A stretch of 64,000 nucleotides of DNA from an uncultured Gammaproteobacteria bacterium. GTDB taxonomy: Bacteria; Patescibacteriota; Microgenomatia; Levybacterales; GWA1-39-11. Location of the stretch: positions 65,067-129,066 of the forward strand of contig CAYPEN010000002.1 in assembly GCA_964409875.1 (NCBI GenBank). Reading direction: 5' to 3'. The translations under genes and the position numbers were made by a program. The notes under the pieces are model-generated. The model ran no database searches, was not told the DNA's origin, and was given only the letters and a program-made list of their open reading frames with translations. This document shows positions 42,291 through 63,546 of the stretch, in pieces (the stretch's first letter is position 1; every line of letters starts with the position of its first letter).

Positions 42291-43268
42291 TTACGAAAGA
42301 AGAGTTATCCATACAGTCATTGCAGTAGATAATTTCCGCCAATACCCTCTTTTTTTACCTAATTCTTTCGCAATTTCTAAATAACACCCTTCAATAGTAT
42401 TGGAGGTTAAGCGTATATCTTCAACTTCTCTCCACAACCATTCATTGACCGGTATACCGGTCTTCTCTTTCTCTATATTTACATCTGTATTTGATGCCCT
42501 ACTGTGCTTTACGGATGGAGCACCGGAAGTAATTGCATAACCCAAATGGTCGCAAATTTTCTTGATAAATAATCCTGCCCAGATGTCATCAAATCGGTCA
42601 TAAGGCCATTTATTTTCGTTCTTATCCTTACCCATCAGCAAAAAATACATTGCAGGCAAAATTTCCCGTCTGAAAGCCAAATTCATAGAACACATCGGAA
42701 AGTACTTCCCATACGGCACTTTTTCTACCTTTTTGAACGGTTTTGTCCTCAACTCCGGGTATTTTTTTTGTGTAATTCCATCAAGATCGGGAATATTTGA
42801 CCAAAGACCGTGATGGACCATGGTCGGCTGCCTTTTATCCCTAAACTCATATGGATATCCCCGTGGATAGATTTGATTTTCAAGCGTGTTCCACCAATAA
42901 TCACTCTGCCATTCTTTTTTTAAGCTCGTGAGAATATCTTTCATAAAACCGTTTTTGTATTGTTTCTCAGGCAAACAATCATCATCTAACGTCAGTATGT
43001 ACGTGCTCCCTTTTTGCCAAGCTTTTATGAAACCATACGATCTTACGGCTGCCGACCTGCGAGGTATAATCCAAGAATTTTTTCCTAGCTCACTTTCTAT
43101 ATCTTCCCAACTGTAATGCTGTATCCATTGAGGTAGTTTGAAGCTTTTTTGGGGGTTATCTTCAACTACAATAATTTCAAGTCCGGAAAACTCCTTTTCC
43201 CAAGCTGTTAAGAACGAATTAATTGATTGCTCACGGATGGTAGGTACAATAATTGCAATATCTTTCAT
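42291..43268 (-). CDS. Reversibly-glycosylated-polypeptide (RGP)/UDP-arabinopyranose mutase-like protein (GT75-like)
   Basis: Blocks LTLDDDCLP, HGLWSNIPDLDG, FPMCSMNLAFRREILPAMYF, RFDDIWAGLFIKKICDHLGYAITSGAPSVKHSRASN closely parallel conserved plant RGP/UAM motifs (from memory of the family). Confidence 0.6.
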   Translation of the reverse strand: MKDIAIIVPTIREQSINSFLTAWEKEFSGLEIIVVEDNPQKSFKLPQWIQHYSWEDIESELGKNSWIIPRRSAAVRSYGFIKAWQKGSTYILTLDDDCLPEKQYKNGFMKDILTSLKKEWQSDYWWNTLENQIYPRGYPYEFRDKRQPTMVHHGLWSNIPDLDGITQKKYPELRTKPFKKVEKVPYGKYFPMCSMNLAFRREILPAMYFLLMGKDKNENKWPYDRFDDIWAGLFIKKICDHLGYAITSGAPSVKHSRASNTDVNIEKEKTGIPVNEWLWREVEDIRLTSNTIEGCYLEIAKELGKKRGYWRKLSTAMTVWITLLS

Positions 43269-43357
43269 TTAGTTTCCTATCTTACTCAATTTTTGCTTGG
43301 TTTAAAAGCTTCTTTTTGAATTTGTCAAAAGTCTGCAGACGATGGTACACTTCACAC

Positions 43358-43939
43358 ATGCCAAGACTTATTGCCATTATTCTATTCATCGTCTTACTTC
43401 CCCTTTTTCCATTAATGTTTGTGCTAATAACAATTACCTCTGATGGTCCTTTTATTTTCAAACAAAAAAGAATGGGGAAAGGAAAAAAGGTATTCACAAT
43501 TTATAAACTGCGAACGATGGTGAAAGATGCTGAAAAACTAAAATCTAAATACTTACATCTGAATGAGACTGATGGTCCAGTCTTTAAAATCCGTAACGAT
43601 CCCAGATATACAAGTATTGGGAGATTTCTTGCAAGAACAGCACTTGATGAACTGCCCCAGCTCATAAATATAATTAAGGGCGAAATGGCTTTTGTGGGGC
43701 CTCGCCCCCTTCCTGTTGAAGAAGCAAGAAATGTACCTAAAAAATATGACGCCCGTTTTTCTATCCTCCCCGGGCTTACATCAACTTGGGTTATAAAAGG
43801 GTCTCACCAGCTCAAATTTGAACAATGGATGGAACTTGATTTGAAATACGTAAAGAATAAGACTTTATGGGGTGACTTTGAAATTATTCTTAAAACTTTT
43901 TTTCTCATATTTAAATCTTTAATAAATATAAGAAGGTAG
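43358..43939 (+). CDS. Polyprenyl-phosphate sugar phosphotransferase (bacterial sugar transferase, WbaP/PglC-like small form)
   Basis: Start MPRLIAI at 43358; PVFKIRNDPRYTSIGRFLARTALDELPQLINIIKGEMAFVGPRP signature. Confidence 0.85.
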   Translation: MPRLIAIILFIVLLPLFPLMFVLITITSDGPFIFKQKRMGKGKKVFTIYKLRTMVKDAEKLKSKYLHLNETDGPVFKIRNDPRYTSIGRFLARTALDELPQLINIIKGEMAFVGPRPLPVEEARNVPKKYDARFSILPGLTSTWVIKGSHQLKFEQWMELDLKYVKNKTLWGDFEIILKTFFLIFKSLINIRR

Positions 43940-43974: not shown

Positions 43975-45153
43975 ATGATCCGGTTGCTGCCTTATTTCCT
44001 CTTTTTCCTACTAGCGCTTGAGGGACTCGGAATTCCTAACGGCCGGGAACTGGCATATGCAATTCTCGTACTGGGTTCTCCAATATTTTTTATCCACACT
44101 TTTTTTCAAAAAAAAGCATTTAAAATACCCAGAACGATAACAATACTTTTCATATTATTAATTGTTTCTGCTTTTATATCTTCATTTATGGGTTTAAAAC
44201 CGCAAAATTCTCTTCAATATTCTTTTCTGTTACTGTCAATCTTTTTCCTTTTTCTCGTTGCATATAACAATCAAAAAGAACTCACAAAACCAATCATAGT
44301 AGTAATTTTTCTTTCCTCTGCGCTCTTTACTCTTTATTCAGCTCTTCTTTCCTTTCATATTAATTTCCCCCTGCCTGCAAATGGTTACCAGTTCGTATTT
44401 TCGAAATTCGGCTCGCACAACCACCTCGGCGACTTTCTGGTTCTTCCTTCAATAATTTGCCTATATTACTTATATAACCGCAAGTATGTATTACTAGCTA
44501 TTAGCTATCAGTTATTTGCTATTATTTTCATTTTTTTCTCCTACTCCCGATCTGCATACCTTTCATTAGCATTAACAACAATTTTGCTGCATTTAATGTA
44601 TTTAAAATCTAAAAACTCTTTACACACCATACTTCTATCAAGGCTTTTAATGCTCATATTAGTTCTTTCATCAGCTTTTTTTATTGTCGCAACAACCCGC
44701 CAGGCAATAACCCAACCCTTATCAAAAGAAGTAAATGAAACGCTCGTTAAAAAAGGAGGTTTAAAGCATAAAGAATTATTGGGCAATAGGCTTGAGTATA
44801 TAAGGCAATCTCTCCTCTCAGTACAAAAAAACTCAATTTTTGGCATTGGTCCTAACAATTTTTTGTTAGTTTCCAAAACGTATGCACCCAAAAAATCTTT
44901 AATTACTGAAGCTACTCACAACATTTTTCTTGAAATACTCGTAGGACAGGGAATTTTAGGGCTTTTGCCTTTTATCACTATTAACATCCTTATATTGATA
45001 AAATCCAAAAAAAATGCCCTTTATTTCGGGTTGGTGGCATTGCTTATCAATTTCCAAACAGATTATACGTACCAAATTTATTCGTTTCTTCTTCTATTTT
45101 TTGTCCTAAGTGGCGTGATTTTAGAACAACCTAACCATAATCCTAACTCGTGA
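43975..45153 (+). CDS. O-antigen ligase-like (Wzy_C) membrane protein
   Basis: Polytopic; FSYSRSAYLSLALTTILL loop typical of Wzy_C. Confidence 0.6.
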   Translation: MIRLLPYFLFFLLALEGLGIPNGRELAYAILVLGSPIFFIHTFFQKKAFKIPRTITILFILLIVSAFISSFMGLKPQNSLQYSFLLLSIFFLFLVAYNNQKELTKPIIVVIFLSSALFTLYSALLSFHINFPLPANGYQFVFSKFGSHNHLGDFLVLPSIICLYYLYNRKYVLLAISYQLFAIIFIFFSYSRSAYLSLALTTILLHLMYLKSKNSLHTILLSRLLMLILVLSSAFFIVATTRQAITQPLSKEVNETLVKKGGLKHKELLGNRLEYIRQSLLSVQKNSIFGIGPNNFLLVSKTYAPKKSLITEATHNIFLEILVGQGILGLLPFITINILILIKSKKNALYFGLVALLINFQTDYTYQIYSFLLLFFVLSGVILEQPNHNPNS

Positions 45154-45182: not shown

Positions 45183-45470
45183 ATGATGACCAAAAATTCT
45201 CCTAAAATTAAAATTATTAAAGGTTTTGTTACTCAAAGAAATGGAAAAACCGTTACTATCTTTGATGCAGAGAAGTCAATGCTCTACACTTTTAATCCGT
45301 CGGCAACTTTTATTTTCGAAAGGTTGAAAAAGGGACTGGATGCCAATAAAATTGCTTCTTTAATGATGAAAGAATTCAACATACAAGAGAAGAAAGCAAT
45401 TGATGACATCAACGATTTCATTAATACTCTGCTCGCAAAAGGACTCGCAAAAAAGGAAAAGATTGCATAA
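45183..45470 (+). CDS. PqqD-family protein (RiPP recognition element-like peptide chaperone)
   Basis: 95 aa; SMLYTFNPSATFIFERLKKGLDANKIASLMMKEFNI...AIDDINDFINTLLAKGL matches the PqqD/RRE pattern (beta-strands + LNxTA..IW..LDG..ei.....dv..fl..L...GL). Confidence 0.75.
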   Translation: MMTKNSPKIKIIKGFVTQRNGKTVTIFDAEKSMLYTFNPSATFIFERLKKGLDANKIASLMMKEFNIQEKKAIDDINDFINTLLAKGLAKKEKIA

Positions 45471-46683
45471 TAAACCTTTTTGTCTTTCTATTAATAACCC
45501 AAAGTAATGAGTACAAAATTGTACCATTAAGAAACACAAATATTTTAATCCACAATGGGTTTGGAGAAAGAGAAAATAGCACTCTAAAAAAATTACCCTC
45601 TCCTAGAATTTCTTTTTCATCAAAAATATTTGTTTTGCCAAACTTTCTTTCTACTAAATTCGCATTGCTTATTTTTCTAAGACCCTTATAAAACGGGCTT
45701 TTAATACGCTTTCTATCGTAATACTTTACATAAAGAAACAAAGCGGAATAGATGAAATTCCATAATTTATACTCCTTAATAGTGTTTAAAATTTGATAGT
45801 AATTTATTTTTTTCTTAAAGACTTCTCTCATAAATTGATATCGATACCCACCCTCAAAATTGTGATGGTAAATATGAAGAAGCAGATAGATGATTAAATT
45901 TTCAATCTTTAAAACAGGAAATTTTACCCTTTCAATCTCAATATATTCCTTTTCATATATAAACTTTTGAGATAACTTGTCTACAAGTTGTTGGGGATAC
46001 AATTTTTCCACTTTACCAATACTGGTCATTAAAAAAACTATTTCAAGATGGATATCAAATGTGACAATCAGTCCGTTGACGTTTTTGTAGAACGAAATTT
46101 CAGCCTTATCAAGCATTGTTTTTCCCGTTAGAGAAGTCGGTGTAACCATTTTGTAGCTATTATCAAAAAGGAGTTTCTTAACCTTTTTGAACTGTTTCTT
46201 ATGAATAAGAATATCGCAATCTGCATAAATTCGACTTGGATACTTTCCTTCGTATAAAAGATGCAAAGGTAGACCTTTCAGAATAACAAAGTCAATTTTA
46301 TGCTCCATAAATAAGCCTGCAATCCTTCTTATCTCATCGAAATACAAACTGGACTGCATAAGATACAGGTCCTCAACTTTATACTTATGACTTCCTCGTT
46401 GGATAGAATCGACTAAACCGATTATCCTCTCTGGTCTTATTTTCCCATCAGATAAACGGTTATTATCCCCTTTTGTTATGAGATATTTATTCGTTTTGTA
46501 CAACACCCTATGAGTAATCAAATGGCTATTTTTTTTAAAACAAACAATATCGTTAGTTTTAATTCTGTTAAAGCTAATTTTCTTAATATGAACTGTATCT
46601 TGGTCTCGAAGGATAGGGAACATAGAATTCCCAAAAGTTTTTATCTTTCCTCTCTTTACTACCTGGTTGACTAAATCTTGCAT
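45421..46683 (-). CDS. Fusion protein: N-terminal S24/S26-type serine peptidase domain + C-terminal uncharacterised nucleotidyltransferase (NTP_transf_5-like) domain
   Basis: N-term GNSMFPIL...ITKGDNN (Ser nucleophile SM motif of LexA/signal-peptidase fold); C-term FVILKGLPLHLLYEGKYPSRIYADCDILIHK matching KG..LY....R...D.D.L nucleotidyltransferase motif. Confidence 0.55.
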   Translation of the reverse strand: MQDLVNQVVKRGKIKTFGNSMFPILRDQDTVHIKKISFNRIKTNDIVCFKKNSHLITHRVLYKTNKYLITKGDNNRLSDGKIRPERIIGLVDSIQRGSHKYKVEDLYLMQSSLYFDEIRRIAGLFMEHKIDFVILKGLPLHLLYEGKYPSRIYADCDILIHKKQFKKVKKLLFDNSYKMVTPTSLTGKTMLDKAEISFYKNVNGLIVTFDIHLEIVFLMTSIGKVEKLYPQQLVDKLSQKFIYEKEYIEIERVKFPVLKIENLIIYLLLHIYHHNFEGGYRYQFMREVFKKKINYYQILNTIKEYKLWNFIYSALFLYVKYYDRKRIKSPFYKGLRKISNANLVERKFGKTNIFDEKEILGEGNFFRVLFSLSPNPLWIKIFVFLNGTILYSLLWVINRKTKRFIMQSFPFLRVLLRAEY

Positions 46684-46703
46684 CCGAGTTACTTAATAGT
46701 TAT

Positions 46704-48179
46704 TTAATATTGAAGTGATTTTAATTTTGCCTTTATATCATCGTTAAAATTTGAATCATTTTCTTCGAAGCCGTTATTTTGTTGCTCTGATATTATGAAG
46801 GGTGAAGGCAAATTATAAGGTGCTAGATGTTCATATAAAACTTGCTTTAACCTACCTGCAATTCGAGGAAGCTTATCTATCAAATTATTACTCTCATATT
46901 TATCTTTCTCAACGTTATATAACTCTTCATAATTATTCTCATGTATGCAAGACCCGGGAAGCGAATAGATATATTTATATTCGCCATCGCTTACGGAAAA
47001 CTTCGAAAGGTTGTTATTTTCTGAAAACGAATATTTCCTCCGGTTAGCTGGGAATGGATTAATAAATAAACTCCGGTTAAATAGGTAAGCAAAGCTCTGC
47101 CCGTCGAAAGCAGAATTATCTTTAATACTCATCAAATCGAGCAGTGTCGGAAGAATATCAGTGTTTTGCAACATAACATTTGAGGTCATTTTATGATCAG
47201 ATAATGGATCGTAGATTATAAGCGGAATCTTTATGGCAGAATCGTATAGAACAGTTCTGTGGTCAAAATAATAATTGTGGTCAAATCCTTCTCCATGATC
47301 CCCATAGATAACAACTATTGTGTTCTTTAAGACCCCGATTTTTTTAAGAGTATTTAATATTTCTCCTGTTATCCGGTCAGCCGAAGCAACTCCACCATCG
47401 TAGAGATTTTCCATAAGCCCAATCCTTTCTTTGGGCACCGTTCTATTTTGACATTTTTGATACTCACCACGTAATCGTTCCAGGTCTTCCAAGCTTTTTC
47501 CGCTGATTTGTGAGCAATATTTAGAGTTAAACTTACAACGTAAATCATCAGGAGGATAATAAGGTGCATGTACATCCATTAAATGAATCCAGGTAAAGAA
47601 TTTAGTATTATGGTTTTTTTCCAACCAGCCTGAAGCTTGTCTTATAAAAGACTCATAGTCTGCCCTACTACTTTGCCTGAATTGTTCATTCCCACTTTTA
47701 TCGAATTGAAAATACTTGAATATGTGAAAATGAAAATCATCAATCCCCTGGTCAAGAGGCTCACCTGTGATAAATGCAGCTGTCTTATATCCGGCTGTTT
47801 TTAACTCCGTTGCCAGTGTCTTAGTATTCCAACTTATACCAGAAAAGCTATTATTCAAAATTCTGGTCTTTAAAGGATCGTAACCTGTCATAAGAGAAAT
47901 AAATGAAGGGTGTGTCATGGGAACTGTAGTTGAAACGTTAGTGAATACTTTTGCGTTATTCGAAAAATTATCTATGTTTGGGGTTGTTTTTTTTTCGTAT
48001 CCATAGACCCCCATATGATCAGGTCTTAATGTGTCAATCGATATTATGACAAGATTGAGGTCTTTTGCCCGTTTGACAATATAAATCTGTCTTCCAAATT
48101 CGAAGGCGGTATAGGATAGAATCAGAATTATTATTACAAGAAAAAGTTTTTTTGATATTAATTTTTTTAATTTCTTCAT
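46704..48179 (-). CDS. Sulfatase-like alkaline-phosphatase-superfamily enzyme (membrane anchored)
   Basis: LVIISIDTLRPDHMGVYGY...PNIDNFS...TTVPMTHPS core; start codon overlaps upstream stop (translational coupling). Confidence 0.7.
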   Translation of the reverse strand: MKKLKKLISKKLFLVIIILILSYTAFEFGRQIYIVKRAKDLNLVIISIDTLRPDHMGVYGYEKKTTPNIDNFSNNAKVFTNVSTTVPMTHPSFISLMTGYDPLKTRILNNSFSGISWNTKTLATELKTAGYKTAAFITGEPLDQGIDDFHFHIFKYFQFDKSGNEQFRQSSRADYESFIRQASGWLEKNHNTKFFTWIHLMDVHAPYYPPDDLRCKFNSKYCSQISGKSLEDLERLRGEYQKCQNRTVPKERIGLMENLYDGGVASADRITGEILNTLKKIGVLKNTIVVIYGDHGEGFDHNYYFDHRTVLYDSAIKIPLIIYDPLSDHKMTSNVMLQNTDILPTLLDLMSIKDNSAFDGQSFAYLFNRSLFINPFPANRRKYSFSENNNLSKFSVSDGEYKYIYSLPGSCIHENNYEELYNVEKDKYESNNLIDKLPRIAGRLKQVLYEHLAPYNLPSPFIISEQQNNGFEENDSNFNDDIKAKLKSLQY

Positions 48180-48652
48180 AATGACTTAATAATAAGGTAA
48201 TTAGCTGCTGCATTTTTCTCATAAAGGTTTGCAGTTTCTTTTATTGTCACATTGTCATTTTTTGTAAGTGACCCAAATGGGATATTATTCCCAAAATTGT
48301 CTATAACGCTTACTTCATGACTGTTATCGGGTGTCAGTAAAAACTGTTTCCTATTGCCATTTTTCTCGATTGTTATCCTTTTTGTTTTTGTATCCATATT
48401 TTCAGTAATATTAAAAATAGAACCTTCATAAACATTTATCAATGTAGATGTAGTCAAAGTACTTTTAGAGGAATAGAAAAAATTAAATAAGACAGACGAA
48501 CTGTAAGGAAGGTAAAATGTTTTGACCTCTCGAGGATTTTTCAACATAAAAGAATTGATATGTGGTTTTTCGTGGATAAAAATAAAAAATTCCAGAATAC
48601 AAAATGCAGTCAAAAAAAACGCAAGATAGGAGAGATTAATCTTATTTTTCAT
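48176..48652 (-). CDS. Small membrane-anchored hypothetical protein, translationally coupled between SagB-like and sulfatase-like genes
   Basis: N-terminal TM; 1-nt overlap with SagB-like stop and 4-nt overlap with sulfatase-like start. Confidence 0.4.
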   Translation of the reverse strand: MKNKINLSYLAFFLTAFCILEFFIFIHEKPHINSFMLKNPREVKTFYLPYSSSVLFNFFYSSKSTLTTSTLINVYEGSIFNITENMDTKTKRITIEKNGNRKQFLLTPDNSHEVSVIDNFGNNIPFGSLTKNDNVTIKETANLYEKNAAANYLIIKSL

Positions 48653-49428
48653 TATCCTAGAGCTACCACTTCAAGAACAGTCTCGGAAAACCCATCTATA
48701 TCAAGATAGTTATTCAGTTTATCATCTACATAGCCTCCGATAGCACAGCATGCTATATTTTGTGAGGCGGATATTAAATAAATATTCTGCAGCATGCAAC
48801 CTGCCTCGGTAAGCACATGTCTATATCCCCTATTTCCATATTTCGTAGTATTTCTGATAAAAACGCCGGTTATAATTAATAATGCGGATGCTTTATATAC
48901 CCACTCCTGGCCTTTGAAAGATTCTACCACAACATCACTATTAAACTCCCCGACAAGCTCAAGCGAGTTATTCTTGACATAATAATGATAAAGGCCTTGA
49001 GGAATTTCCGAATTCATACTGATGAAATAGACCTCCAACGGATATCTTGCTCCTGCAGAGGGATAAAATCTTGCACCTGTTCGGTTATCTTTAATACCGG
49101 CAGAAAAATAAAGCAGATTGCTTATCCGTTCGGTTGTTAGTACTTGACTAAATTCCCTTCGGGATTCTCTTTTTTCCAAAAATTCAGAAAGAACTTTCTG
49201 TTCAAGTACGGGCTTTGGAAGTATAGTTTCGGGCAAACGAGCATAGCCTTTATAGAAAATCTTGATCCATTCAGTTGGCCATTCGCTTCTATTGATTTCT
49301 TTCTTATATTTTTTTATCTTTGTCAGGTTATGGAATTTTTCGAAAGGCTGCATCGGTTCTTTCAAAAGTTCATTCACATCGATATCGTCTTTTTTTAATA
49401 CCTTTGAGTCTGGACGTGTACTCACCAT
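48652..49428 (-). CDS. SagB-type (McbC-like) FMN-dependent dehydrogenase of azoline-forming RiPP pathways
   Basis: Nitroreductase-fold motifs RESRREF, YPSAGARYP, RGYRHVLTEAGCMLQNIYL, ACCAIGGY. Confidence 0.85.
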   Translation of the reverse strand: MVSTRPDSKVLKKDDIDVNELLKEPMQPFEKFHNLTKIKKYKKEINRSEWPTEWIKIFYKGYARLPETILPKPVLEQKVLSEFLEKRESRREFSQVLTTERISNLLYFSAGIKDNRTGARFYPSAGARYPLEVYFISMNSEIPQGLYHYYVKNNSLELVGEFNSDVVVESFKGQEWVYKASALLIITGVFIRNTTKYGNRGYRHVLTEAGCMLQNIYLISASQNIACCAIGGYVDDKLNNYLDIDGFSETVLEVVALG

Positions 49429-49466
49429 GATGTTAAAATATAGCAGATTCCAAGGGATTGTAAAGA

Positions 49467-50261
49467 ATGGATGAATTTTATGTGTCTATTGCGGGTTTTT
49501 TAATCAGGTTGCTTTTTAAGAAAGATGATCGGAAAAATAACCAACAGGAAATTATTATCTACAAACTCCAAACTGAGATTCTCCATACTCTAGCAGGGTT
49601 TGTGTCTGTTGTTACTAGAAATCCTGACTTTACAATTACCATCTCAGAGACCAAGGATGTTGAACGCATCAAGAGGAAGTCGGATCAACATAATTTTATC
49701 TACCAGTATCACAGAATTGATGACAGAAGAGCTTGTGGAAATTACCAAATGAGCATCTGGCATTTTCAATCGATGCTTGCAGACATTTTATATTTTCTGC
49801 TTTCTGAAAACGATGGATTTGGCATACACTGTTCCTCGGTCTATTCTGGAAATAAAGCATATCTATTCTTGGGAAATTCTGGTGCCGGAAAATCTACTAT
49901 AGCAAATCTTCTGAATGGTTATTTCCAGCACTTTACGGACGACATCGCATTTGTTAGAAAGATTGATAAGAAGTATTATCTCTATCAATCACCCTTTCTT
50001 GAGAAGGAAAACAATATTAAATTTCCCTATGGATATGAGATCTCACAAGTCTTCTTCCTGCATAAAAGCAACACGACATGCATCAAAAGGTTAAAGCAAA
50101 ACAAGATTGTAACAAGATTGACAAGACAAGTGCTATCAGACGGTAACTTACCCAAAAATATCCGTAAGACAGTGGAACAATTCGCTTCGCAGGATGTTTT
50201 CAGTGAACTTTACTTTGAAAAAGACCCACAAAAATTGAATGATGTATTGAGGAGGATTTAG
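49467..50261 (+). CDS. HPr-kinase C-terminal-domain-like P-loop protein (HprK-related kinase)
   Basis: GIHCSSVYSGNKAYLFLGNSGAGKSTIANLLNGYFQHFTDD parallels HprK hGVlv...G.GvLi.G.SG.GKSE.AleL...G..liaDD. Confidence 0.65.
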   Translation: MDEFYVSIAGFLIRLLFKKDDRKNNQQEIIIYKLQTEILHTLAGFVSVVTRNPDFTITISETKDVERIKRKSDQHNFIYQYHRIDDRRACGNYQMSIWHFQSMLADILYFLLSENDGFGIHCSSVYSGNKAYLFLGNSGAGKSTIANLLNGYFQHFTDDIAFVRKIDKKYYLYQSPFLEKENNIKFPYGYEISQVFFLHKSNTTCIKRLKQNKIVTRLTRQVLSDGNLPKNIRKTVEQFASQDVFSELYFEKDPQKLNDVLRRI

Positions 50262-50271
50262 TTGAAATATT

Positions 50272-50469
50272 CTAATGGCACATTGCACCGCATGGTCCTG
50301 TAGGAAAGCACATAGCACCCGAGGTTCCAGAACAAGATCCGTAAGTAATAGCGTATACATTCGGGATGATTGAATTGTATGAGTCATTAAACCTGCCGTT
50401 TGCCATGAATTGATTGATTTTAATCTTCTTAATCTTTATTGAAGGTTTTATGTATTTTTTTGAACCCAT
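50272..50469 (-). CDS. RiPP precursor peptide (TOMM/LAP-like): Lys-rich leader + C-terminal core SCSGTSGAMCFPTGPCGAMCH
   Basis: 65 aa (or 44 aa from internal Met); core contains 4 Cys, 3 Ser, 2 Thr, 5 Gly in 21 residues; lies 63 bp downstream of YcaO on same strand; TATAAT 8 nt upstream of ATG. Confidence 0.7.
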   Translation of the reverse strand: MGSKKYIKPSIKIKKIKINQFMANGRFNDSYNSIIPNVYAITYGSCSGTSGAMCFPTGPCGAMCH

Positions 50470-50532: not shown

Positions 50533-51801
50533 CTATAAGAAGGGATGAGGGATTTGATTTATTTTCACATTTTCAGCTCTAAAGAAATCAGCAACCTGCT
50601 TAAGCCTTTTCCTGTTAACAAATTTCTTTTGTTTTTCAAACAGGTATAGAGGTTGTAAGTTAGGAATTAAAATTTTATATGTTACATAATTAATTTTTTT
50701 TAACTGTCTGGCACTTATATCAGCACAAAATATTTCATACCCTTTTTGGCTCAATATTTTTACAACATGCTCTAATTCTTCTTTTTCCGATCCCTGAAAT
50801 TTTGTCATTCTTTTTTTCGATGGTTTTTGTGAAAATAGAAAATCAAGCTTGTCAATCGCCTCAACCGGCCACCAGTAAAATCCACGTTCATGCAGCTCCT
50901 TCATGAACTTGCCCTCGTTTTTAACTTTTTCGCCATTTAATGACGATAGTTTTGCAGCTCTCATGATACTTCTTACCATAAAAGATTCATCAATACTTCC
51001 TTTTATCGCATTTATGCAATTGAAACCCGCTTTCGCCCCTACCGATACAGCGGGGCCAAGTCCAGTCCTGTCAACCAGTATCGATATGAACGATGGGATG
51101 CCCAAATCATTGGTGGCATCAAATATAGATAGCTCCAAATTATACCGTTTAATCGACTTTAAAACAGACAAAAGATCTTTATCTTTTTGTTCATTAATAT
51201 CAATCATAGGTAGCCGTATGGAATTTAAATACGCACAAACAAAAGCGTCTCTCTCAATTACTTCGTAAATACCTCTTAATACTGATGACTCGAAGTTAAA
51301 GCCTCCAGCTGCACCTGTACTTACGAGAGGATATCTATAATCTATTTCCTTTCTGGACGATTTATAATTTAGATAGACAAGCTTTGCAGGAATAACGGTA
51401 GTATTTTTTTTCATAAGATTAATCCCCTCGATATAGCTGACTAATCCATTTTCTCTTATTACCGGAGAAAAAGCTGACAATGGAAATTTGCGATGAAGCC
51501 AGTTGTCGGCTTTTATGTGTTTGACCTTTTTTTCCTTGTAAGATGACAGAGAATAGCGTTCTATAGTCTCACCTAAACATTTCAGAAGAGCGATTTCTCG
51601 GTTGGAAAGCGACACGCCACTTGCACCTAATTCTTTATCGAGATAACCGTCAGTGTGTTTTTGGCTAAGTGCTAGCTTTGCGAAGTAATAATAGAACCTC
51701 GGATCATCATTGAAATATTTTGCTTCACCTATTGACTCCAAAATCCCTAGATCCAATAAACTATCGAGCATTTTTTCCATAGTATTTCTCATATTATTCA
51801 T
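50533..51801 (-). CDS. YcaO-domain cyclodehydratase (SagD-like)
   Basis: CLGETIERYS, STGAAGG (ATP-binding), EVIERDA, and C-terminal proline-rich PHPFL terminus typical of azoline-forming YcaOs. Confidence 0.9.
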   Translation of the reverse strand: MNNMRNTMEKMLDSLLDLGILESIGEAKYFNDDPRFYYYFAKLALSQKHTDGYLDKELGASGVSLSNREIALLKCLGETIERYSLSSYKEKKVKHIKADNWLHRKFPLSAFSPVIRENGLVSYIEGINLMKKNTTVIPAKLVYLNYKSSRKEIDYRYPLVSTGAAGGFNFESSVLRGIYEVIERDAFVCAYLNSIRLPMIDINEQKDKDLLSVLKSIKRYNLELSIFDATNDLGIPSFISILVDRTGLGPAVSVGAKAGFNCINAIKGSIDESFMVRSIMRAAKLSSLNGEKVKNEGKFMKELHERGFYWWPVEAIDKLDFLFSQKPSKKRMTKFQGSEKEELEHVVKILSQKGYEIFCADISARQLKKINYVTYKILIPNLQPLYLFEKQKKFVNRKRLKQVADFFRAENVKINQIPHPFL

Positions 51802-51863: not shown

Positions 51864-52451
51864 TTAAATTCGAGTTATAGTCAATTCATTTAAAAAGTCC
51901 GGGTATCTTTTCATTAATGATGTGTTAATTTTTATTATTACTTTATCTCCGGGTTTCAAGTCATTAACTTTAATAGGTATATCATTTCCGGCCTTTTTTT
52001 CAAAAACGTGCACTCTATTCATGTATTTACCTCCCACATAATATGGAACTTTATAAGAATCCTTTAAGGATGGGTCATCATAATTTAAAGTAATGGAAAA
52101 TGCATATGGTGCATTTAATCTGGGAGCAATTCCACCCTTCACATCAACGTCTCCAATATAACCCTCATATTCGAGCACCGAATAAGCTTGGTGTAATTTT
52201 TTAAAATCGGATAGTTTTTGTAAAAGAGTTGTCCGCGAAGAATAGATTTTTAATTGTTGATCGTAACTTGTCCCATTATTATCTTGGGTCTGGTGCCATG
52301 GTAAATATGAAGCTATATGAATGACCCCAAATCGGTCCAATACAAAAATTGCAATTGCAATCACACTTAATATCACTAAAACTTCATATATCAAGGCCCT
52401 TACCCCTACCGCTCTTTTCCTGGTTTCGCTTTGCATACTAAAGTTTTCCAT
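51864..52451 (-). CDS. Membrane-anchored hypothetical protein (paralog B of tandem pair)
   Basis: N-terminal TM; C-terminal DLKPGDKVIIKINTSLMKRYPDFLNELTITRI shared with neighbour. Confidence 0.5.
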   Translation of the reverse strand: MENFSMQSETRKRAVGVRALIYEVLVILSVIAIAIFVLDRFGVIHIASYLPWHQTQDNNGTSYDQQLKIYSSRTTLLQKLSDFKKLHQAYSVLEYEGYIGDVDVKGGIAPRLNAPYAFSITLNYDDPSLKDSYKVPYYVGGKYMNRVHVFEKKAGNDIPIKVNDLKPGDKVIIKINTSLMKRYPDFLNELTITRI

Positions 52452-52452
52452 A

Positions 52453-53046
52453 TTATTGTTTGGTAATTAAAACTTGGTTGATATTATTGGGATAGGCACG
52501 AAGAGTTCCTGTATTCGTCCTAACTGTTACTTTATCACCGACCCTCAGATCTTTCAAACTTATCACCTTTTTCAAAGAATCTACAACCTTTATCTTATCC
52601 ATTGCTAATGTAGGATAAAGAAGTGTTGCACTTTCTGAACCCTTACCTACTCCTACTACTAACTTTGCACTTATAGAAGCTTTCGTTGCGGTATCCACTT
52701 CAGGGTTCAAATCTATTGTTATTATTTTCCCTTCAAATTCACTGATATTTTGAGCCATATGTAAAGCTTTATTTCTAGAAACAATATTTAAGTCTGGCTG
52801 GGCTGGATTTAGCTTGATATAATTTTGTTTCTGACTTAGCCTCTGATTGTCGAATGAATTAGGCTTTATTTTTGCATTTTGACTAGGTTGGAAATTAGGT
52901 TTTCGTGCAAAAAGAGCATATATATCTATGATCTTCAAAAAATTGAGCATAAAAATAACAATGCTTGTCAAAATAAGGATTATTGCAATCTCAATTATTG
53001 CAGCTTTCAAAATCCCGAAAGTTGTTGTCGAAGTATTATTTTCCAC
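52453..53046 (-). CDS. Membrane-anchored hypothetical protein (paralog A of tandem pair)
   Basis: N-terminal TM; C-terminal LKDLRVGDKVTVRTNTGTLRAYPNNINQVLITKQ; stop abuts start of paralog B. Confidence 0.5.
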   Translation of the reverse strand: MENNTSTTTFGILKAAIIEIAIILILTSIVIFMLNFLKIIDIYALFARKPNFQPSQNAKIKPNSFDNQRLSQKQNYIKLNPAQPDLNIVSRNKALHMAQNISEFEGKIITIDLNPEVDTATKASISAKLVVGVGKGSESATLLYPTLAMDKIKVVDSLKKVISLKDLRVGDKVTVRTNTGTLRAYPNNINQVLITKQ

Positions 53047-53557: not shown

Positions 53558-55606
53558 CTACCGCAGAACTCCTACTAACTTTAGCACGTAAGGCATGACT
53601 TGGGTTATTTGAGGCTTTTTAAAACCCAATTTTCTATTTGAGAGCAATACGCCGGGTACTTCGGTCGGGTCAAAAAGGTGATCCCCGCTCCATTTATAAG
53701 TTCTCTTTGTTATCACATCAGGAGTTGTCGCCCCTATCGCGCTGTCCCAGGATGAGCGCGTTCCTTTATAAAAACCTAAAATCAGATCAGGTGCGTAGTT
53801 ATCATCGGGTGAAACACCCATCTCTTCTCTTGTATAAACGTGCTTCATTATCTTATCTCCCGTTTGAGGATTTATCTCATCCATTAATTTTTGAATGATC
53901 TCTTTTTGTAACTCTCGTATATCTTTAGGATGAACTGATCCTTCTTCTTCGCGTCCTGAAATATTGAAAAACACACTGTTGTATCCTGCAGCATACGCTT
54001 TCGTCTTGCTCCAATCGACAGAATCATATAATGGTCCGGATTCATTTGCTCCCTCTCTTAATACCAAATAACCATTCTTGACCAAGAAAGTATTAACGTT
54101 CATTTCGTAATCAAATGAATAAAACCCATGATCGGAAAGTATCAGGAAAGTCGTATCCTTATCCATTTTTGCAATGGTCTGCCCTACTATCTCATCCATT
54201 TTTTCATAATACTGGTTTATCGTGTCATGATATGGACTGTTTTGATCTTTTAAAAATCGCCAGAACATATGAGAAATTGTATCCGGCATGCCAAAATAGG
54301 CAAAAAGGATTCCGTTGTTGTAAGAGGCAAGCTTTGAGTAATAAATTTTCTTTCTTTCGGCAAGAATTGAATCTGCTTGCTTAAGGAAAGCCTTTTCATC
54401 AAACACGTTCTCTTCCAAAGCCCAGGTGTCATGCGGAAGACCCAAAGTTGAGTACAACCCAAGCTCCTTTGAGAGTTTTGCAGAAAATCCTTTCGGTGCA
54501 GAAATAGGTTTTAAAGGTGTTTCAGGGTCAAAATTAATGGGTGACATATACAACTCAATGTCGGGAGATACACTTTTGAGGTAAAACTTGGCTATCCCTT
54601 TAACTTTTGTAAAGAAGTCTATGCCAAATTCCAAACGTTTCCAATCGGAAAACTCCCCTTTAGCAATTTTGAAAGTTTGCTTTTGAACGCTAATTTCAAC
54701 AGAAGAATCCTTAATAACCTTAATGGTAAGCGGAACTGTTGCTACTTTTGTATCGTTACCGCCATTATATTTTGGTCCCTCTATATTTGTATCTATTGTC
54801 TTTTTATATGAAACGGGAATTACTTTTCCCCTCCAGGTATAATCATTGGTCGGATACTTTCTTGTAGTAAAAAGCGTAAATGTTCCCTGAGTTCCAAGGA
54901 CATCGGGTACCCCCATTCCTGCAATCATCTCGCCAGTCAGTGATTTTGGCGGCTCGAAAGTATCGGGCAAAAATAAAACGGTAACTGGAACTTTGTTTGC
55001 GGTTGTCTTTTCCCAAAAAGGAGTTGCATGAAGTGTCGTTGTATTTTTGTCGTTGCCTGAAAAGACTAAATTTAGGCCGTAATTTGCAGGATCCCGCTCA
55101 ATAAAGTCATATACTCCGTGCTGTGAAGGATTCTCCCCAGTTATAAAACTCGCCCATGCAACTGGGGACTGAGGCGGAACAACCGTTGCAAGAGGAGAGA
55201 AATAGCCCGTATCTTTAAGTTTTTTTAAATTTTTAAACCTTCCATTTTTCCACCCTTCTTCAAGAATATTTGGGTCCATTCCGTCAAAACCCAATATGAT
55301 TACTTTTTTTGTTTGCTTGGTGCCCAACAGAGACATACCCCCAATTATACCAGCGAATAAAACAAGCAAAATAAGAACAACAATAACGCTCTTTTTTCTG
55401 AAAAACGGGAATATTTTATATCTTAAATAGAATAAGCTCGAACCCAAAGCTCCCAGTATAACAGCAAGAAAAATTGGAATATTTGAACCCAATACGTATC
55501 CTGACCCAGGGTCTATATAGTTTAAAATCAATTGTGGATTTGAAAGAAGGGTTGCTGTGTACTGCAATTGCACCTCGCTTGCTGCTATTTGACAAAGAGC
55601 GCACAT
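53558..55606 (-). CDS. Type I phosphodiesterase/nucleotide pyrophosphatase family (alkaline phosphatase superfamily) membrane-anchored protein
   Basis: VIILGFDGMDPNILEE...ATVVPPQSPVAWASFITG motif block; N-terminal TMs. Confidence 0.75.
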   Translation of the reverse strand: MCALCQIAASEVQLQYTATLLSNPQLILNYIDPGSGYVLGSNIPIFLAVILGALGSSLFYLRYKIFPFFRKKSVIVVLILLVLFAGIIGGMSLLGTKQTKKVIILGFDGMDPNILEEGWKNGRFKNLKKLKDTGYFSPLATVVPPQSPVAWASFITGENPSQHGVYDFIERDPANYGLNLVFSGNDKNTTTLHATPFWEKTTANKVPVTVLFLPDTFEPPKSLTGEMIAGMGVPDVLGTQGTFTLFTTRKYPTNDYTWRGKVIPVSYKKTIDTNIEGPKYNGGNDTKVATVPLTIKVIKDSSVEISVQKQTFKIAKGEFSDWKRLEFGIDFFTKVKGIAKFYLKSVSPDIELYMSPINFDPETPLKPISAPKGFSAKLSKELGLYSTLGLPHDTWALEENVFDEKAFLKQADSILAERKKIYYSKLASYNNGILFAYFGMPDTISHMFWRFLKDQNSPYHDTINQYYEKMDEIVGQTIAKMDKDTTFLILSDHGFYSFDYEMNVNTFLVKNGYLVLREGANESGPLYDSVDWSKTKAYAAGYNSVFFNISGREEEGSVHPKDIRELQKEIIQKLMDEINPQTGDKIMKHVYTREEMGVSPDDNYAPDLILGFYKGTRSSWDSAIGATTPDVITKRTYKWSGDHLFDPTEVPGVLLSNRKLGFKKPQITQVMPYVLKLVGVLR

Positions 55607-55632
55607 AGACCTACATTATATACTACAAAAAT

Positions 55633-56301
55633 ATGACCCTTCAGGATAAAATTGCCAAAACCAAGCAGATTTTAAAACAGGCTGAGAAGAAGTATGGCTT
55701 CAAAGATATTGCCCTTGCCTGGAAAGGTGGAAAAGACACAACAACCCTTATGCATATCATCCTGACTCTATATAATGGCGTTATTCCGTACAAGGTTATG
55801 TTCAATGACACGACAATAGAATTTCCGCAAATGTATAAATTCATTGAAAAAGTTGCCCACCAATGGAATTTGAATTTAATAATAGAGAAACATTCAGATA
55901 GTGACCTTGCAAACTACAAAAAAGCCCGCGGAATGGCCTTAAAGGAAGAAATCTCACGGCTCGCAAAAATCAATTCACTCAACAGAGCGTTGGAAAAGTA
56001 TAAATTAAAAGGTTATATGCTGGGAATACGCCGTGACGAAAACCCAGCAAGGAAAAATGAAAAATACTTCTCTCCTCGTCCAAACCACATAAGAATTCAC
56101 CCGTTACTTGAATTTACCGAGGAAGACGTGTGGGCATATATCCGTCTTTTCAACGTCCCTTACTCACCACTCTATGATAAAGGCTACCGCTCAATAGGCG
56201 AAAAACCTTTTACAAAAAAATCCTCGGGTGATGAGCGTTCCGGACGGGAACAAAATAAGGAAAAAATGATGGAAAAATTACGACAAATGGGATATTGGTG
56301 A
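55633..56301 (+). CDS. PAPS-reductase-family PP-loop protein lacking C-terminal catalytic Cys
   Basis: ALAWKGGKDTTTLMHI PP-loop; LGIRRDENPAR; C-terminal YRSIGEKPFT has no Cys in place of the CysH Cys motif. Confidence 0.7.
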   Translation: MTLQDKIAKTKQILKQAEKKYGFKDIALAWKGGKDTTTLMHIILTLYNGVIPYKVMFNDTTIEFPQMYKFIEKVAHQWNLNLIIEKHSDSDLANYKKARGMALKEEISRLAKINSLNRALEKYKLKGYMLGIRRDENPARKNEKYFSPRPNHIRIHPLLEFTEEDVWAYIRLFNVPYSPLYDKGYRSIGEKPFTKKSSGDERSGREQNKEKMMEKLRQMGYW

Positions 56302-56302
56302 A

Positions 56303-57949
56303 TTACTTAATAAGTTTTTCCACCTTCAAAAACTTTAAAATTTCTCCCACACATACTTTAACGCTATGGTTTGTGGTATCAAGTATAATTTCAGGTGCAA
56401 GAGGCTTTTCGTAAGGGTCGTCTATTCCTGTTAAATTCTTAATCAAACCCATCTCAGCCTTTTTATACAGTCCTTTCGTATCCCTTTTTTTACATACGGA
56501 AAGTGGCGTTGAAACATATGCTTCGGCAAAAGTCCCAACCTGGGAAACAATTTCTCTCACCTCATCCCGCACCTTTCTATACGGCGCAATCGCCGCAACG
56601 ATTACTACCCCCTGGTGTTTTACGATTTCACCTGCAACAAACCCAATACGCCGAATGTTCTCGTCCCTATCATCCCTTGAAAACCCGAGGCCTTTTGTCA
56701 AATGTTTTCTAATAATATCCCCGTCAAGAAGCGTAACCGGCTTGTTGTACCTATCCATAAGCACTAACGATAGACTTTTTGCAACTGTTGATTTGCCTGC
56801 ACCTGAAAGACCGGTCAGAAAGACACAAAAACCCTTTTGCCTTTTAACTCTTCTCTTGAGGATTTTAATAACAGGTGGAAAAGAAAACCATTCCGGAACT
56901 TTTTCGTCTTCTCTTAACATCTTTCGAAATTGCGTCCCGGAAATCCGCTTGATGGCTTTCGCATCTTTGTTTTTGGCTGAAACTTCAACATATTGCTTGT
57001 TCTTTTCATCGTAAGCCATCTCGTTAAATTCAATAATTTTTATTCCAATCTCTCTGGCGTATTTTTGCGCAAGCTTTTGGGCATCGTAAGGCTCATAGAA
57101 AAGATTACCGTGACTATCTGTTCCGGGATCTGCATGGGACCGTCCGACAATAAAATGTGTACAACCATAGTTTTTACGGATAATTGCGTGCAGGATAGCC
57201 TCTCTTGGTCCTGCCATTCGCATCGCTAATGGCAATAGGCTAAGGGTAGAAAAATCCTTGGCGTATTTTCTTTGAATGATTTTGTAGCATTTAACTCTAG
57301 TTATATAGTCGATATCTCCGTCTTTCGTCTCCCCCACCGAAGGATGGATAAGAGCGTGTGCTTTTTCTTTTTCTGCAGCCTTCTTTATCATCCAGAAGTG
57401 AGCCTGATGAATAGGATTTCTTGTTTGAAATCCAATTACTTTCTTCCATCCTCTTTTCTTAAAATATTTCTTTAACTGCTGGGGTGTCTTTCTTAAATTC
57501 TTATAATCGTAGTGCTCAATAGAGCCCAATTTTTCAACTTTTCCACCAAGATAGTACTCATTTGTCCTTTCAAACAGATATTTGACTCCAAAATGTTCTT
57601 TTGAATCGGTTCCATACACCATTTGTGCTTCCTTTTTCTTGTCCGGCTTGTAGATAGACTCAACATGAAGTGTTGCAACCGGCTTTTCGGAAAGGTCGCA
57701 AAGTAGTACTTTTTGTCCAACATTAAAACCAGCTAATCCCTCTACATCCAAAACGATAGGAATTGGCCATAGAATGCCGTTTGAAAGGCGCATTTGGCTT
57801 ACAACAGAGCGGTAGTCGTCTTCGTTAAGAAATCCTGTCAAGGGGGCAAATCCGCCGTTTAGAATCAATTCTAAATCACAAAGCTGGCGGGTAGACAGAA
57901 AGATTTTAGAAAGAAAAGCCTCTGATGCTTCTTTCTGTAACATATTCAT
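56303..57949 (-). CDS. sat/cysC: Bifunctional sulfate adenylyltransferase (ATP sulfurylase)/adenylylsulfate kinase
   Basis: N-domain QTRNPIHQAHF and GRSHADPG motifs; C-domain Walker A LTGLSGAGKSTVAKSL of APS kinase. Confidence 0.9.
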   Translation of the reverse strand: MNMLQKEASEAFLSKIFLSTRQLCDLELILNGGFAPLTGFLNEDDYRSVVSQMRLSNGILWPIPIVLDVEGLAGFNVGQKVLLCDLSEKPVATLHVESIYKPDKKKEAQMVYGTDSKEHFGVKYLFERTNEYYLGGKVEKLGSIEHYDYKNLRKTPQQLKKYFKKRGWKKVIGFQTRNPIHQAHFWMIKKAAEKEKAHALIHPSVGETKDGDIDYITRVKCYKIIQRKYAKDFSTLSLLPLAMRMAGPREAILHAIIRKNYGCTHFIVGRSHADPGTDSHGNLFYEPYDAQKLAQKYAREIGIKIIEFNEMAYDEKNKQYVEVSAKNKDAKAIKRISGTQFRKMLREDEKVPEWFSFPPVIKILKRRVKRQKGFCVFLTGLSGAGKSTVAKSLSLVLMDRYNKPVTLLDGDIIRKHLTKGLGFSRDDRDENIRRIGFVAGEIVKHQGVVIVAAIAPYRKVRDEVREIVSQVGTFAEAYVSTPLSVCKKRDTKGLYKKAEMGLIKNLTGIDDPYEKPLAPEIILDTTNHSVKVCVGEILKFLKVEKLIK

Positions 57950-59663: not shown

Positions 59664-59800
59664 TTGCCCGAGAGTCCCCCGGCCTTGACCTATTTTCCCC
59701 AAATTATGAGTATCGTAGGCGCTGGCGCGTTTCACTTCTCTGTTCGGAAAGGGAAGAGGTGGTTCCACACCGCTCCAAAGACCGAAAGGCTTTCGGGCAA
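59664..59800 (-). rRNA. rrf: 5S ribosomal RNA
   Basis: Reverse complement contains CCGAACAGAGAAGTGAAACGCGCCAGCGCC (conserved loop B/helix III region) with terminal helix GCCCGAAAG / CTCTCGGGC. Confidence 0.75.
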
Positions 59801-59857: not shown

Positions 59858-63125
<3,268 letters not shown>

Positions 63126-63392
63126 ACAGATTCTTGAAAATCATGTGCGGTGTTCTCTTAACTTTAAAATTAAAATTGCTGTGTATCCGCCCTTAGGCGG
63201 AATACGGCCTAGTTATTTACTGACTTTAACGTCGCTGATGTGACGCTAAAGTGCTTGTATCCCAATTGTTAAAGAACATATTTCTACTGTATTCGAGGAA
63301 GGCCAGCTGTAGCGCTGCGCCTTTCTCCAACACAGTAGGTTGTCGAATTCAGTGGGTCAGCTAAGCTGACCATCACCCAGCTAAGCTGGGTG

Positions 63393-63413: not shown

Positions 63414-63473
63414 AAGTGTCTGACTCTGACCTCTCCGTCGATTTTCCTTGAGCCACTCTCAAAGAGCGAACTG

Positions 63474-63546
63474 TGGACCCTAGGAGATTCGAACTCCTGA
63501 CCTCATCATTGCAAATGATGCGCTCTACCAGCTAAGCTAAGGGCCC
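63474..63546 (-). tRNA. tRNA-Ala (anticodon UGC)
   Basis: Reverse complement GGGCCCTTAGCTTAGCTGGTAGAGCGCATCATTTGCAATGATGAGGTCAGGAGTTCGAATCTCCTAGGGTCCA folds as cloverleaf with G3:U70, anticodon TGC; CCA not encoded. Confidence 0.85.

Follow-up and report, generated by a model that had tools for sequence, protein, structure and literature searches.

The window analysed here, a stretch of 64,000 nucleotides from contig CAYPEN010000002.1 of an uncultured Microgenomates bacterium, carries between about 45 and 53 kb a cassette of genes predicted to produce a ribosomally made peptide that is modified after translation (RiPP). An initial annotation of this DNA had described three of the gene products as a standalone PqqD, an HPr-kinase-like P-loop protein and an S24/S26 peptidase fused to an NTP_transf_5-like nucleotidyltransferase, and had likened them to the PqqD/HprK-like/nucleotidyltransferase sets known from lasso peptides. 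All three open reading frames (ORFs) are present, those for PqqD (45183-45470) and the kinase (49467-50261) on the forward strand and that for the fusion protein (45421-46683) on the reverse strand. The three assignments stand, and so does the likeness: the closest characterised systems are those of the linear polyphosphorylated peptides (LPPs), a lasso-derived family with a leader peptidase resembling signal peptidase I (SpI) and no cyclase, published in May 2026 and stated to be restricted to Bacillota (Popov et al., Nat Commun 2026, PMC13381572). The annotation mentioned neither the gene for the precursor peptide nor a set of paralogous membrane proteins, nor how tightly the cassette is linked to genes for polysaccharides.

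The 95-residue product of 45183-45470 is a discrete RiPP recognition element (RRE) of the PqqD family (PF05402, 44.8 bits; cut-off 23.4). Its best NCBIfam match is the lasso PqqD chaperone, ScmD being the second-best label. A profile of its family matches the lasso B1 proteins TbiB1 (E 2.9e-10), TfuB1 (1.6e-9) and PbaB1 (PDB 9x90, 2.5e-8) as well as LppB (PDB 9x8z, 9.3e-8), and true PqqD only at 0.013. Compared by hhalign with the RREs of Bacillota LPP clusters, whose sequences were taken, like all LPP references used here, from the supplement of PMC13381572 (LppK from its Supplementary Fig. 23), the protein gives a probability of 98% (E 2.7e-13). Residues N38, D75 and F79, the first two of them conserved, align with N33, D70 and F74 of LppB, of which N33 and D70 fix the proline kink of the leader and hydrogen-bond the tyrosine of its YxxP motif (PMC13381572). 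The RRE is thus of the LppB-like kind predicted to bind a Tyr-type YxxP leader.

The second protein (264 amino acids, 49467-50261) is less readily classified from sequence profiles. It has no match to PF07475 (Hpr_kinase_C) or PF02603 in the Pfam library, its best NCBIfam match is ScmC (TIGR04249) with 29.2 bits against a cut-off of 125, and precomputed Pfam assignments place it and its homologs in PF27840 "ScmC"; a word-indexed search returned 16 homologs only. Because a search of PDB profiles with the family was uninformative, yielding mostly 24-residue matches to ABC P-loops and HPrK only at E 0.028, structure prediction and Foldseek were used instead. The AlphaFold2 model has a pLDDT (predicted local distance difference test) of 89.4, and the 50 leading PDB matches listed are all ATP-dependent PEPCK (E 2.7e-8) or HPrK/P (E 3.5e-5). 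H121, S123, the P-loop GxSGAGKST (136-144) and D159 are invariant among the homologs, which is the HPrK pattern of catalytic histidine, P-loop and aspartate. The protein is not a true HPr kinase/phosphorylase, since the N domain and PF07475 are lacking and the similarity to HPrK/P is at the level of the fold. With LppK, by contrast, BLASTP aligns it over 225 amino acids (residues 48-253 of 264) with 25% identity (E 5e-14), and the pattern of Pfam matches is identical for the two proteins, whereas the alignment with the lasso kinase PbaK is limited to a catalytic core of 62 amino acids. It is predicted to be a Ser/Thr kinase of the precursor.

The third protein (420 amino acids, 45421-46683) joins two enzymes. 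Its residues 1-106 (46366-46683, reverse strand) form a signal-peptidase domain of the SipW/Sec11 type, in which an S24/S26-like segment spans residues 13-94 or so; TIGR02228 is matched with 49.9 bits, just below the cut-off of 51.85, and PF00717 with 20.8 against 23.3. A profile of 30 homologs of the fusion protein matches human SEC11C/SEC11A (E 6e-5), and a comparison by hhalign with 10 Bacillota proteins of the LppS family gives a probability of 99.1% (E 5.5e-19, 30% identity, residues 11-106). The motifs GxSMxP, THR and KGDNN..D are kept across the 30 homologs, with H58 and D79 invariant and S20 nearly so (at least 90%). This triad corresponds to S29/H68/D93 of LppS, mutation of which abolishes cleavage (PMC13381572). 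A housekeeping signal peptidase I would be a stand-alone protein with an N-terminal anchor; here, the domain begins at about residue 10 without N-terminal hydrophobic segment or membrane anchor, is soluble, and is fused to a cytoplasmic-type nucleotidyltransferase. It thus differs from a housekeeping signal peptidase, and is predicted to be an ER/archaeal-type leader peptidase resembling LppS.

The remainder of the protein (residues 109-420 and stop, 45421-46359, reverse strand) is an NTP_transf_5 domain of the LppN/PsmN type with a hydrophobic C-terminal tail. It matches PF14907 with 74.5 bits (cut-off 31.2, residues 109-322), as does LppN with 91.6 bits. A KG motif, Y153-x-D155-C-D157, D210 and H212 are conserved among homologs, D155 and D157 being invariant and corresponding to D134/D136 of PsmN. 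In the pseudomycoidin cluster, PsmN is needed for the addition of hexose(s) onto phosphoserine, and mutation of D134/D136 kills hexosylation (PMC6993621). The idea that the tail corresponds to the C-terminal helix of LppS, the nucleotidyltransferase being inserted in an LppS-like protein, was rejected (hhalign probability 0.1%). A search with the fusion protein gave 457 homologs (E <= 1e-3); the 120 of them that were listed are 387-459 amino acids long, each cover 88-100% of the query, and come from Levy-, Roizman-, Gottesman- and Beckwithbacteria. The fusion of LppS- and LppN-type domains is therefore the standard form in Microgenomates; its description in the initial annotation as unusual holds by comparison with Bacillota, which encode LppS and LppN separately, and not within its own lineage. 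The convergent PqqD and fusion genes overlap at their 3' ends by 50 nt (45421-45470), and overlaps of 14-85 nt recur in 29 related loci; such a conserved arrangement could couple their expression.

The putative substrate of these enzymes is encoded at 50272-50469 on the reverse strand, between the kinase gene and the YcaO gene. This 65-residue precursor reads MGSKKYIKPSIKIKKIKINQFMANGRFNDSYNSIIPNVYA up to the predicted cleavage point and ITYGSCSGTSGAMCFPTGPCGAMCH after it. The leader, M1-A40, carries Y6-x-x-P9-x-I11, and the predicted core, I41-H65, contains 4 Cys, 3 Ser and 3 Thr among its 25 residues. No other ORF in the window bears such a leader. A hidden Markov model (HMM) of the leader, applied to 91 sequences (90 loci and the window), found precursors in 48 of them, many adjoining genes of the trio, and members of the same leader family are present in loci without YcaO. 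The consensus is K-K-Y-x-K-P-x-[ILV]-x-x-K-K-[IV]-K-x-N-x-F, then 15-20 or so variable residues, then [LV]-[LYF]-A. Compared with the LPP motif, the YxxPx[ILV] half is present (Y6, P9, I11), and the "FETxxS" half is replaced by about 20 extra residues and [LV][LYF]A.

Signal peptidases follow the -1/-3 rule. At the junction of the 48 unique precursors, the last residue is Ala in 44 and Ser or Thr in the other 4, P3 is mostly Leu or Val, and P2 mostly Leu, Tyr or Phe. Because this pattern fits the rule, cleavage is most likely to occur after Ala40, and cleavage after Ala, Ser or Thr also agrees with the Thr at position -1 of LppA. The alternative of cleavage on the N-terminal side of Ala, by analogy with the FET/AQS junction of LppA, is less likely and would leave Tyr, Phe or Leu at P1. 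Beyond the junction, the cores are hypervariable: some are Cys-rich, some Gly-rich and microcin-B17-like, some made of GGYYGQ repeats, some only 4-6 residues long (e.g. LLVYS), and some consist of a short core followed by a Hint/intein-like domain.

In six related loci, the leader and a short Cys-rich core are followed by a C-terminal Hint/intein-like domain with the motif C[FL]LxDT ... HN, three on the reverse strand (L010:1563-2210, L052:6713-7270, L066:2088-2654) and three on the forward strand (L019:1731-2327, L023:3456-4037, L074:599-1153). Pfam scores are 48.6 bits for Intein_splicing (L052) and 38.2 (L052) and 45.7 bits (L074) for PT-HINT. Placed directly after a RiPP core, such a domain would leave that core with a C-terminal thioester; we know of no described RiPP precursor with this leader-core-Hint design. 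Locus L044 encodes tandem precursors (134-508 and 530-922, forward strand) with the same leader and Cys-free cores of about 90 residues of GGYYGQ repeats, which look like low-complexity structural or adhesive sequence more than like a typical bacteriocin.

Genes of an azole module lie to either side of the precursor gene. The YcaO cyclodehydratase (50533-51801, reverse strand) is of the SagD type, has 422 amino acids and ends in PHPFL; it matches PF02624 with 136.7 bits and TIGR03604 with 177.7 bits, under the cut-off of 219. The SagB-type FMN dehydrogenase (48652-49428, reverse strand), an enzyme type that converts azolines to azoles, matches TIGR03605 with 125.3 bits (cut-off 78.4) and PF00881, and SagB accompanies YcaO in 15 of 17 genome loci. 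The window thus contains the YcaO, the FMN dehydrogenase and the Cys/Ser/Thr-rich core by which linear azol(in)e-containing peptides (LAPs) and thiazole/oxazole-modified microcins (TOMMs) are recognised. A related YcaO in another locus (L058:1976-4090, reverse strand) has 704 amino acids; its unassigned N-terminal extension of about 375 residues may represent a partner domain fused to the enzyme, in contrast to the window, whose YcaO stands alone.

The initial annotation had placed the trio as embedded in the YcaO locus and had called for a comparison of neighbourhoods across relatives. For this, 79 genome loci were retrieved through the fusion protein and their ORFs labelled with jackhmmer and BLAST clustering; co-occurrence counts rest on the BLAST clusters, jackhmmer labels having drifted for two true PEPCK proteins (L032 and L053). 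In the unbiased sample of 36 loci with at least 5 kb of flanking sequence, a feature being counted when within 5 kb of the fusion gene, PqqD is found in 30 loci, the kinase in 23 and the full trio in 22. The DUF4330 protein occurs in 22 (median distance about 1 kb), Wzy_C in 20, the phosphoglycosyl transferase Bac_transf in 16, the membrane-protein family described below in 15, YcaO in 12, SagB in 11 and an ABC exporter in 5. This conservation is well above chance, and with 22 loci for the trio against 12 for YcaO it reverses the earlier picture: the trio is the conserved core, and YcaO/SagB are accessory in about one third of loci. In relatives, the usual arrangement is Bac_transf, kinase and PqqD converging on the fusion gene. 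At 37-63% kinase identity, the order is Wzy_C, PqqD, fusion, sulfatase-like, membrane protein, SagB, kinase, precursor, YcaO, membrane protein. Two related cassettes encode proteins of about 415 amino acids that combine a QueC-like PP-loop ATPase with a C-terminal PqqD/RRE (L028:5767-7023 and L064:6919-8154, both forward strand), which suggests a further type of RRE-guided enzyme.

Further genes of the cassette encode membrane-associated proteins. At 46704-48179 (reverse strand) lies a membrane-anchored protein of the "sulfatase" family within the alkaline-phosphatase (AP) superfamily (PF00884, 159 bits). T-H-P-S takes the place of the sulfatase motif C/S-x-P-x-R, so that the prediction is of an enzyme with a Thr nucleophile that hydrolyses or transfers phospho-esters outside the cytoplasm, and not of a sulfatase. 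T-x-P-S is found in 14 of 17 inspected members of this sulfatase-like family, and a second PF00884 protein of the window (37563-38999, reverse strand) likewise has T-x-P-S and not the formylglycine motif; both proteins are likely to be phosphotransferases or phosphatases. Of the 17 genome loci with YcaO, 7 also have the sulfatase-like gene, which is present in 11 genome loci in all. A single-pass membrane protein of 158 amino acids with an all-beta C-terminal domain (48176-48652, reverse strand) was recognised from paralog alignments, together with two paralogs of 195 and 197 amino acids downstream of YcaO (51864-52451 and 52453-53046, reverse strand). The three share the C-terminal motifs yEG.I and DLk.GD.v.i, and BLAST clustering groups them in a family with 64 members from 43 loci, whose genes in relatives often lie directly upstream of, and overlap, the precursor gene. 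They have no Pfam or NCBIfam match, the AlphaFold2 model built from the three window paralogs is poor (pLDDT 56.7), and a homolog search with the 158-residue protein returned the query alone.

Taken together, the cassette is probably an LPP-type RiPP pathway that has recruited an azole module, in a Microgenomates (Levybacteria-like) bacterium, as judged from its closest relatives. The evidence consists of the gene content, the homology to LppB, LppK, LppS and LppN, conserved residues for catalysis and binding, the family of precursors and the conserved neighbourhood; from it we infer the chemistry of every step, the sequence in which the steps occur, the residue that accepts phosphate and where the leader is cut. 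The 65-residue precursor would be bound through Y6xxP9xI11 by the discrete PqqD-type RRE, and on the precursor held in this way the LppK-like kinase would phosphorylate, possibly poly-phosphorylate, a Ser/Thr of the core. YcaO and SagB would turn core Cys, and possibly Ser/Thr, into thiazoles or oxazoles on the same leader-bearing substrate, using the same RRE in place of the absent E1-like partner. The SipW/Sec11-type domain of the fusion protein would then remove the leader in an RRE-dependent manner, most likely after Ala40, and the tethered NTP_transf_5 domain would add a hexose or nucleotidyl group to the phosphate, as PsmN does. Outside the cell, the product would probably be handled by the membrane-anchored AP-superfamily enzyme and the paralogous single-pass membrane proteins. 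The hybrid of phosphorylation/nucleotidylation and azole formation proposed in the initial annotation is hence the best-supported reading, with a single precursor that would combine an LPP-type leader and an azole-type core.

Several points weigh against this pathway or one of its steps. Azoline-forming YcaOs normally require an E1-like or ThiF-like partner. Pfam scans of the window proteins (ORFs of at least 130 amino acids in 1-34.3 kb and the larger ORFs in 34.3-55.6 kb, the content of 55.6-59.8 kb being judged solely through the annotations of a syntenic relative) revealed no E1-like (C) or Ocin_ThiF-like (F) protein, so that the discrete PqqD is the only RRE available; to our knowledge, a YcaO that uses a discrete RRE of 95 amino acids has no precedent. 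Nor is there an MsbA-like exporter among the scanned proteins. LppK polyphosphorylates Ser3 of the core and does not accept an S3T substrate (PMC13381572), and the window family has no fixed Ser3: across the 48 unique precursors no core position is invariantly Ser or Thr, and position 2 of the window core is Thr. The NTP_transf_5 step is the weakest, as LppN was inactive in the published system (PMC13381572); furthermore, direct comparisons of this domain with LppN by BLASTP and hhalign are not significant, and the link comes solely from the shared Pfam model. Finally, a Levybacteria relative (L001-L003) still has a block of YcaO, SagB, kinase and precursor, but has lost PqqD and an intact fusion gene from the locus.

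The lack of a C or F protein among the scanned proteins would be accounted for if the P-loop protein were not primarily a kinase but an ATP-binding scaffold that replaces the E1-like C protein for YcaO, and its gene does adjoin YcaO, SagB and the precursor gene in all inspected YcaO loci. Yet only 9 of the 23 loci in which the kinase gene is near the fusion gene have a YcaO, the homologous LppK (E 5e-14) is a demonstrated Ser kinase (PMC13381572), and its homologs show no variation in the HPrK-type His, P-loop and Asp of the window protein, which makes such a role very unlikely.

The Levybacteria block bears on another alternative, in which two independent systems share one locus: an LPP-like module serving the envelope or its polysaccharides, and a LAP module of YcaO, SagB and precursor that makes an azole bacteriocin untouched by kinase and nucleotidyltransferase. 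Such a separation would agree with the presence of YcaO in only 12, and SagB in only 11, of the 36 fusion-bearing loci, and with the earlier description of LAP clusters from the Candidate Phyla Radiation (CPR) as YcaO, nitroreductase and peptidase only (PMC7298704). However, the leader of the sole leader-bearing ORF belongs to the YxxPxI family seen also in loci without YcaO, and without that precursor the LPP enzymes would lack a substrate in the window. Moreover, in L004-L012 as in the window the kinase gene sits between SagB and the precursor gene, in L023 YcaO, SagB and kinase form a contiguous set on a single strand, and the YcaO has no partner of its own. We therefore regard two separate systems as unlikely and retain the single LPP-type pathway with a recruited azole module.

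The cassette sits in a surface-polysaccharide locus. Immediately upstream of PqqD and in the same direction lie genes for a Bac_transf phosphoglycosyl transferase (43253-43939, forward strand; PF02397, 191 bits) and a Wzy_C O-antigen-ligase-like membrane protein (43975-45153, forward strand; PF04932, 67.5 bits), PqqD being the final gene of this run. The wider region encodes GT2, WecG, RGP, GDSL and GH10 proteins, a second Wzy_C and, adjoining the latter and 10 kb from the fusion gene, a DUF4330 membrane protein (34306-35112, forward strand). In relatives, Bac_transf lies within 100 bp of a ScmC-family kinase or PqqD gene on the same strand in 20 genome loci, and Wzy_C in 7 loci including the window. 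This tight and conserved adjacency, together with the high frequency of the fusion family in Microgenomates, could be taken to mean that the trio has no peptide substrate at all and a role in surface glycans, its kinase and nucleotidyltransferase acting on sugars or lipid carriers and its S26 domain being an ordinary signal peptidase. That is highly improbable given an anchor-less peptidase domain homologous to a proven RiPP leader peptidase, an RRE that retains the leader-binding residues, and leader-HMM matches in 48 of 91 sequences that pair a conserved leader with a hypervariable core.

A related idea keeps the peptide as substrate and gives its product another role: the phosphorylated peptide may serve as acceptor or primer for a surface glycopolymer, giving a ribosomal peptide-anchored glycoconjugate, and not be a free bacteriocin. 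It is suggested by the Bac_transf-(kinase)-PqqD order in the 20 genome loci and from the embedding of LPP clusters in capsule loci of Bacilli, and we put it forward as tentative and rather unlikely. If it were true, formation of the phospho-sugar linkage would fall to the fused peptidase-nucleotidyltransferase, with assembly completed by the extracytoplasmic AP-superfamily enzyme and the paralogous membrane proteins.

As for the rest of the window, the other Pfam-scanned ORFs encode housekeeping and surface proteins. Just beyond the cassette (53558-57949) are genes for a type I phosphodiesterase-family membrane protein, a PAPS-reductase-family protein and a fused ATP-sulfurylase/APS-kinase, which are syntenic in L004-L006; PAPS-reductase-like genes are also found near the trio in L037, L057 and L086. 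Eukaryote-like repeats occur in a 1387-residue RCC1-repeat protein (2674-6837, reverse strand) and a leucine-rich-repeat (LRR) protein (302-1012, forward strand) of this CPR genome. A 23S rRNA match (59859-63126, reverse strand) extends over 3268 nt against a model of 2925 nt, implying one or more insertions that together amount to about 340 nt, and is flanked by 5S rRNA (59677-59786) and tRNA-Ala (63473-63546). A scan of 45-53.2 kb for promoters and terminators gave 30 sites against 33.4 in shuffled sequence; as this is no excess, no regulatory claims are made.

Several implications follow for RiPP biosynthesis. LPP-type machinery is widespread beyond Bacillota, in the ultra-small Microgenomates whose genomes are poor in biosynthetic gene clusters (BGCs), and the fusion of nucleotidyltransferase and leader peptidase is a strong hint that both steps are coupled. 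The module pairs with other RiPP features, namely YcaO/SagB in the window and Hint-fused precursors and QueC-PqqD fusions in relatives. If the proposed pathway is correct, its YcaO would be the first azoline-forming one served by a stand-alone lasso-type RRE of 95 amino acids, and the locus offers a natural test of whether a discrete RRE can recruit a YcaO that lacks an E1-like partner. That polysaccharide genes accompany such cassettes in two phyla also opens the "biofilm/capsule" hypothesis of the LPP authors to comparative genomics.

Among known systems, the LPP cluster lppA-K-B-S-D-N of Paenibacillus alginolyticus DSM5050 is the closest; LPP clusters are found in capsular-polysaccharide loci, lack a lasso cyclase, and encode precursors with the motif YxxPxVLxHQxIxFETxxS (PMC13381572). 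Both systems have a discrete RRE of the YxxP-binding type, an LppK-type kinase, a Ser-His-Asp leader peptidase of the SipW/archaeal type, which in the case of LppS cuts the leader only upon presentation by LppB (PMC13381572), and a PF14907 NTP transferase. They also share the lack of lasso cyclase and B2, a YxxPx[VIL] leader with a hypervariable core, and the location in a surface-polysaccharide locus. They differ in phylum (Patescibacteria/Microgenomates versus Bacillota), in the organisation of LppS and LppN (one protein of 420 amino acids in the window, separate genes in Bacillota), and in the leader, which in the window is longer (about 40 residues) and has [LV][LYF]A rather than FET at its end. 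The fixed Ser3 acceptor and "FETxxS" of LPPs are not conserved in the window family, and the LPP core cluster has an MsbA-like exporter whereas none is found among the scanned window proteins. Conversely, the window adds the YcaO/SagB module, the AP-superfamily enzyme and the three paralogous membrane proteins. The SpI dataset of Popov et al. contains one unanalysed Microgenomates singleton with a different architecture, an ABC-ATPase-SpI fusion (PMC13381572).

The lasso clusters of paeninodin and pseudomycoidin (PadeK/PsmK, PsmN, B1) share with the window an RRE, an HprK-like kinase and a PF14907 nucleotidyltransferase, and the chemical logic of the pseudomycoidin type is phosphorylation followed by hexosylation (PMC6993621). 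In agreement with the initial annotation, no Asn-synthetase-like lasso cyclase and no transglutaminase-like B2 protein are found among the scanned window proteins, nor is an ABC exporter; the window thus lacks, in these parts, the macrolactam synthetase (C) and B2 cysteine protease of these clusters, and its leader has Tyr and not Trp. The SynChlorMet (SCM) cassette (TIGR04248-04251) provides the best label for the kinase (TIGR04249 ScmC) and the second-best for PqqD (TIGR04248 ScmD), but the scores are far below their cut-offs (29.2 versus 125 and 32.6 versus 100 bits) and there is no ScmE/ScmF radical-SAM gene in the locus.

With LAP/TOMM clusters, finally, the window shares a SagD-type YcaO, a SagB dehydrogenase and a core rich in Cys, Ser, Thr and Gly adjoining YcaO, and differs from them by its discrete lasso-type RRE, by having no C or F protein among those scanned, and by the integrated kinase and nucleotidyltransferase. 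Sharrar et al. (2020) described CPR LAP clusters as YcaO, nitroreductase and peptidase, with a "peptidase" in the Microgenomates example (PMC7298704), and a full-text literature search found no paper that joins YcaO with the trio of PqqD, kinase and fusion protein. What is new relative to all these systems is the distribution in CPR bacteria, the LppS-LppN fusion as the norm of a lineage, the longer leader with Ala at its junction, the hybrid with YcaO/SagB that lacks an E1-like partner, the family of membrane proteins that accompanies it, and the conserved linkage, in one operon, with a phosphoglycosyl transferase.

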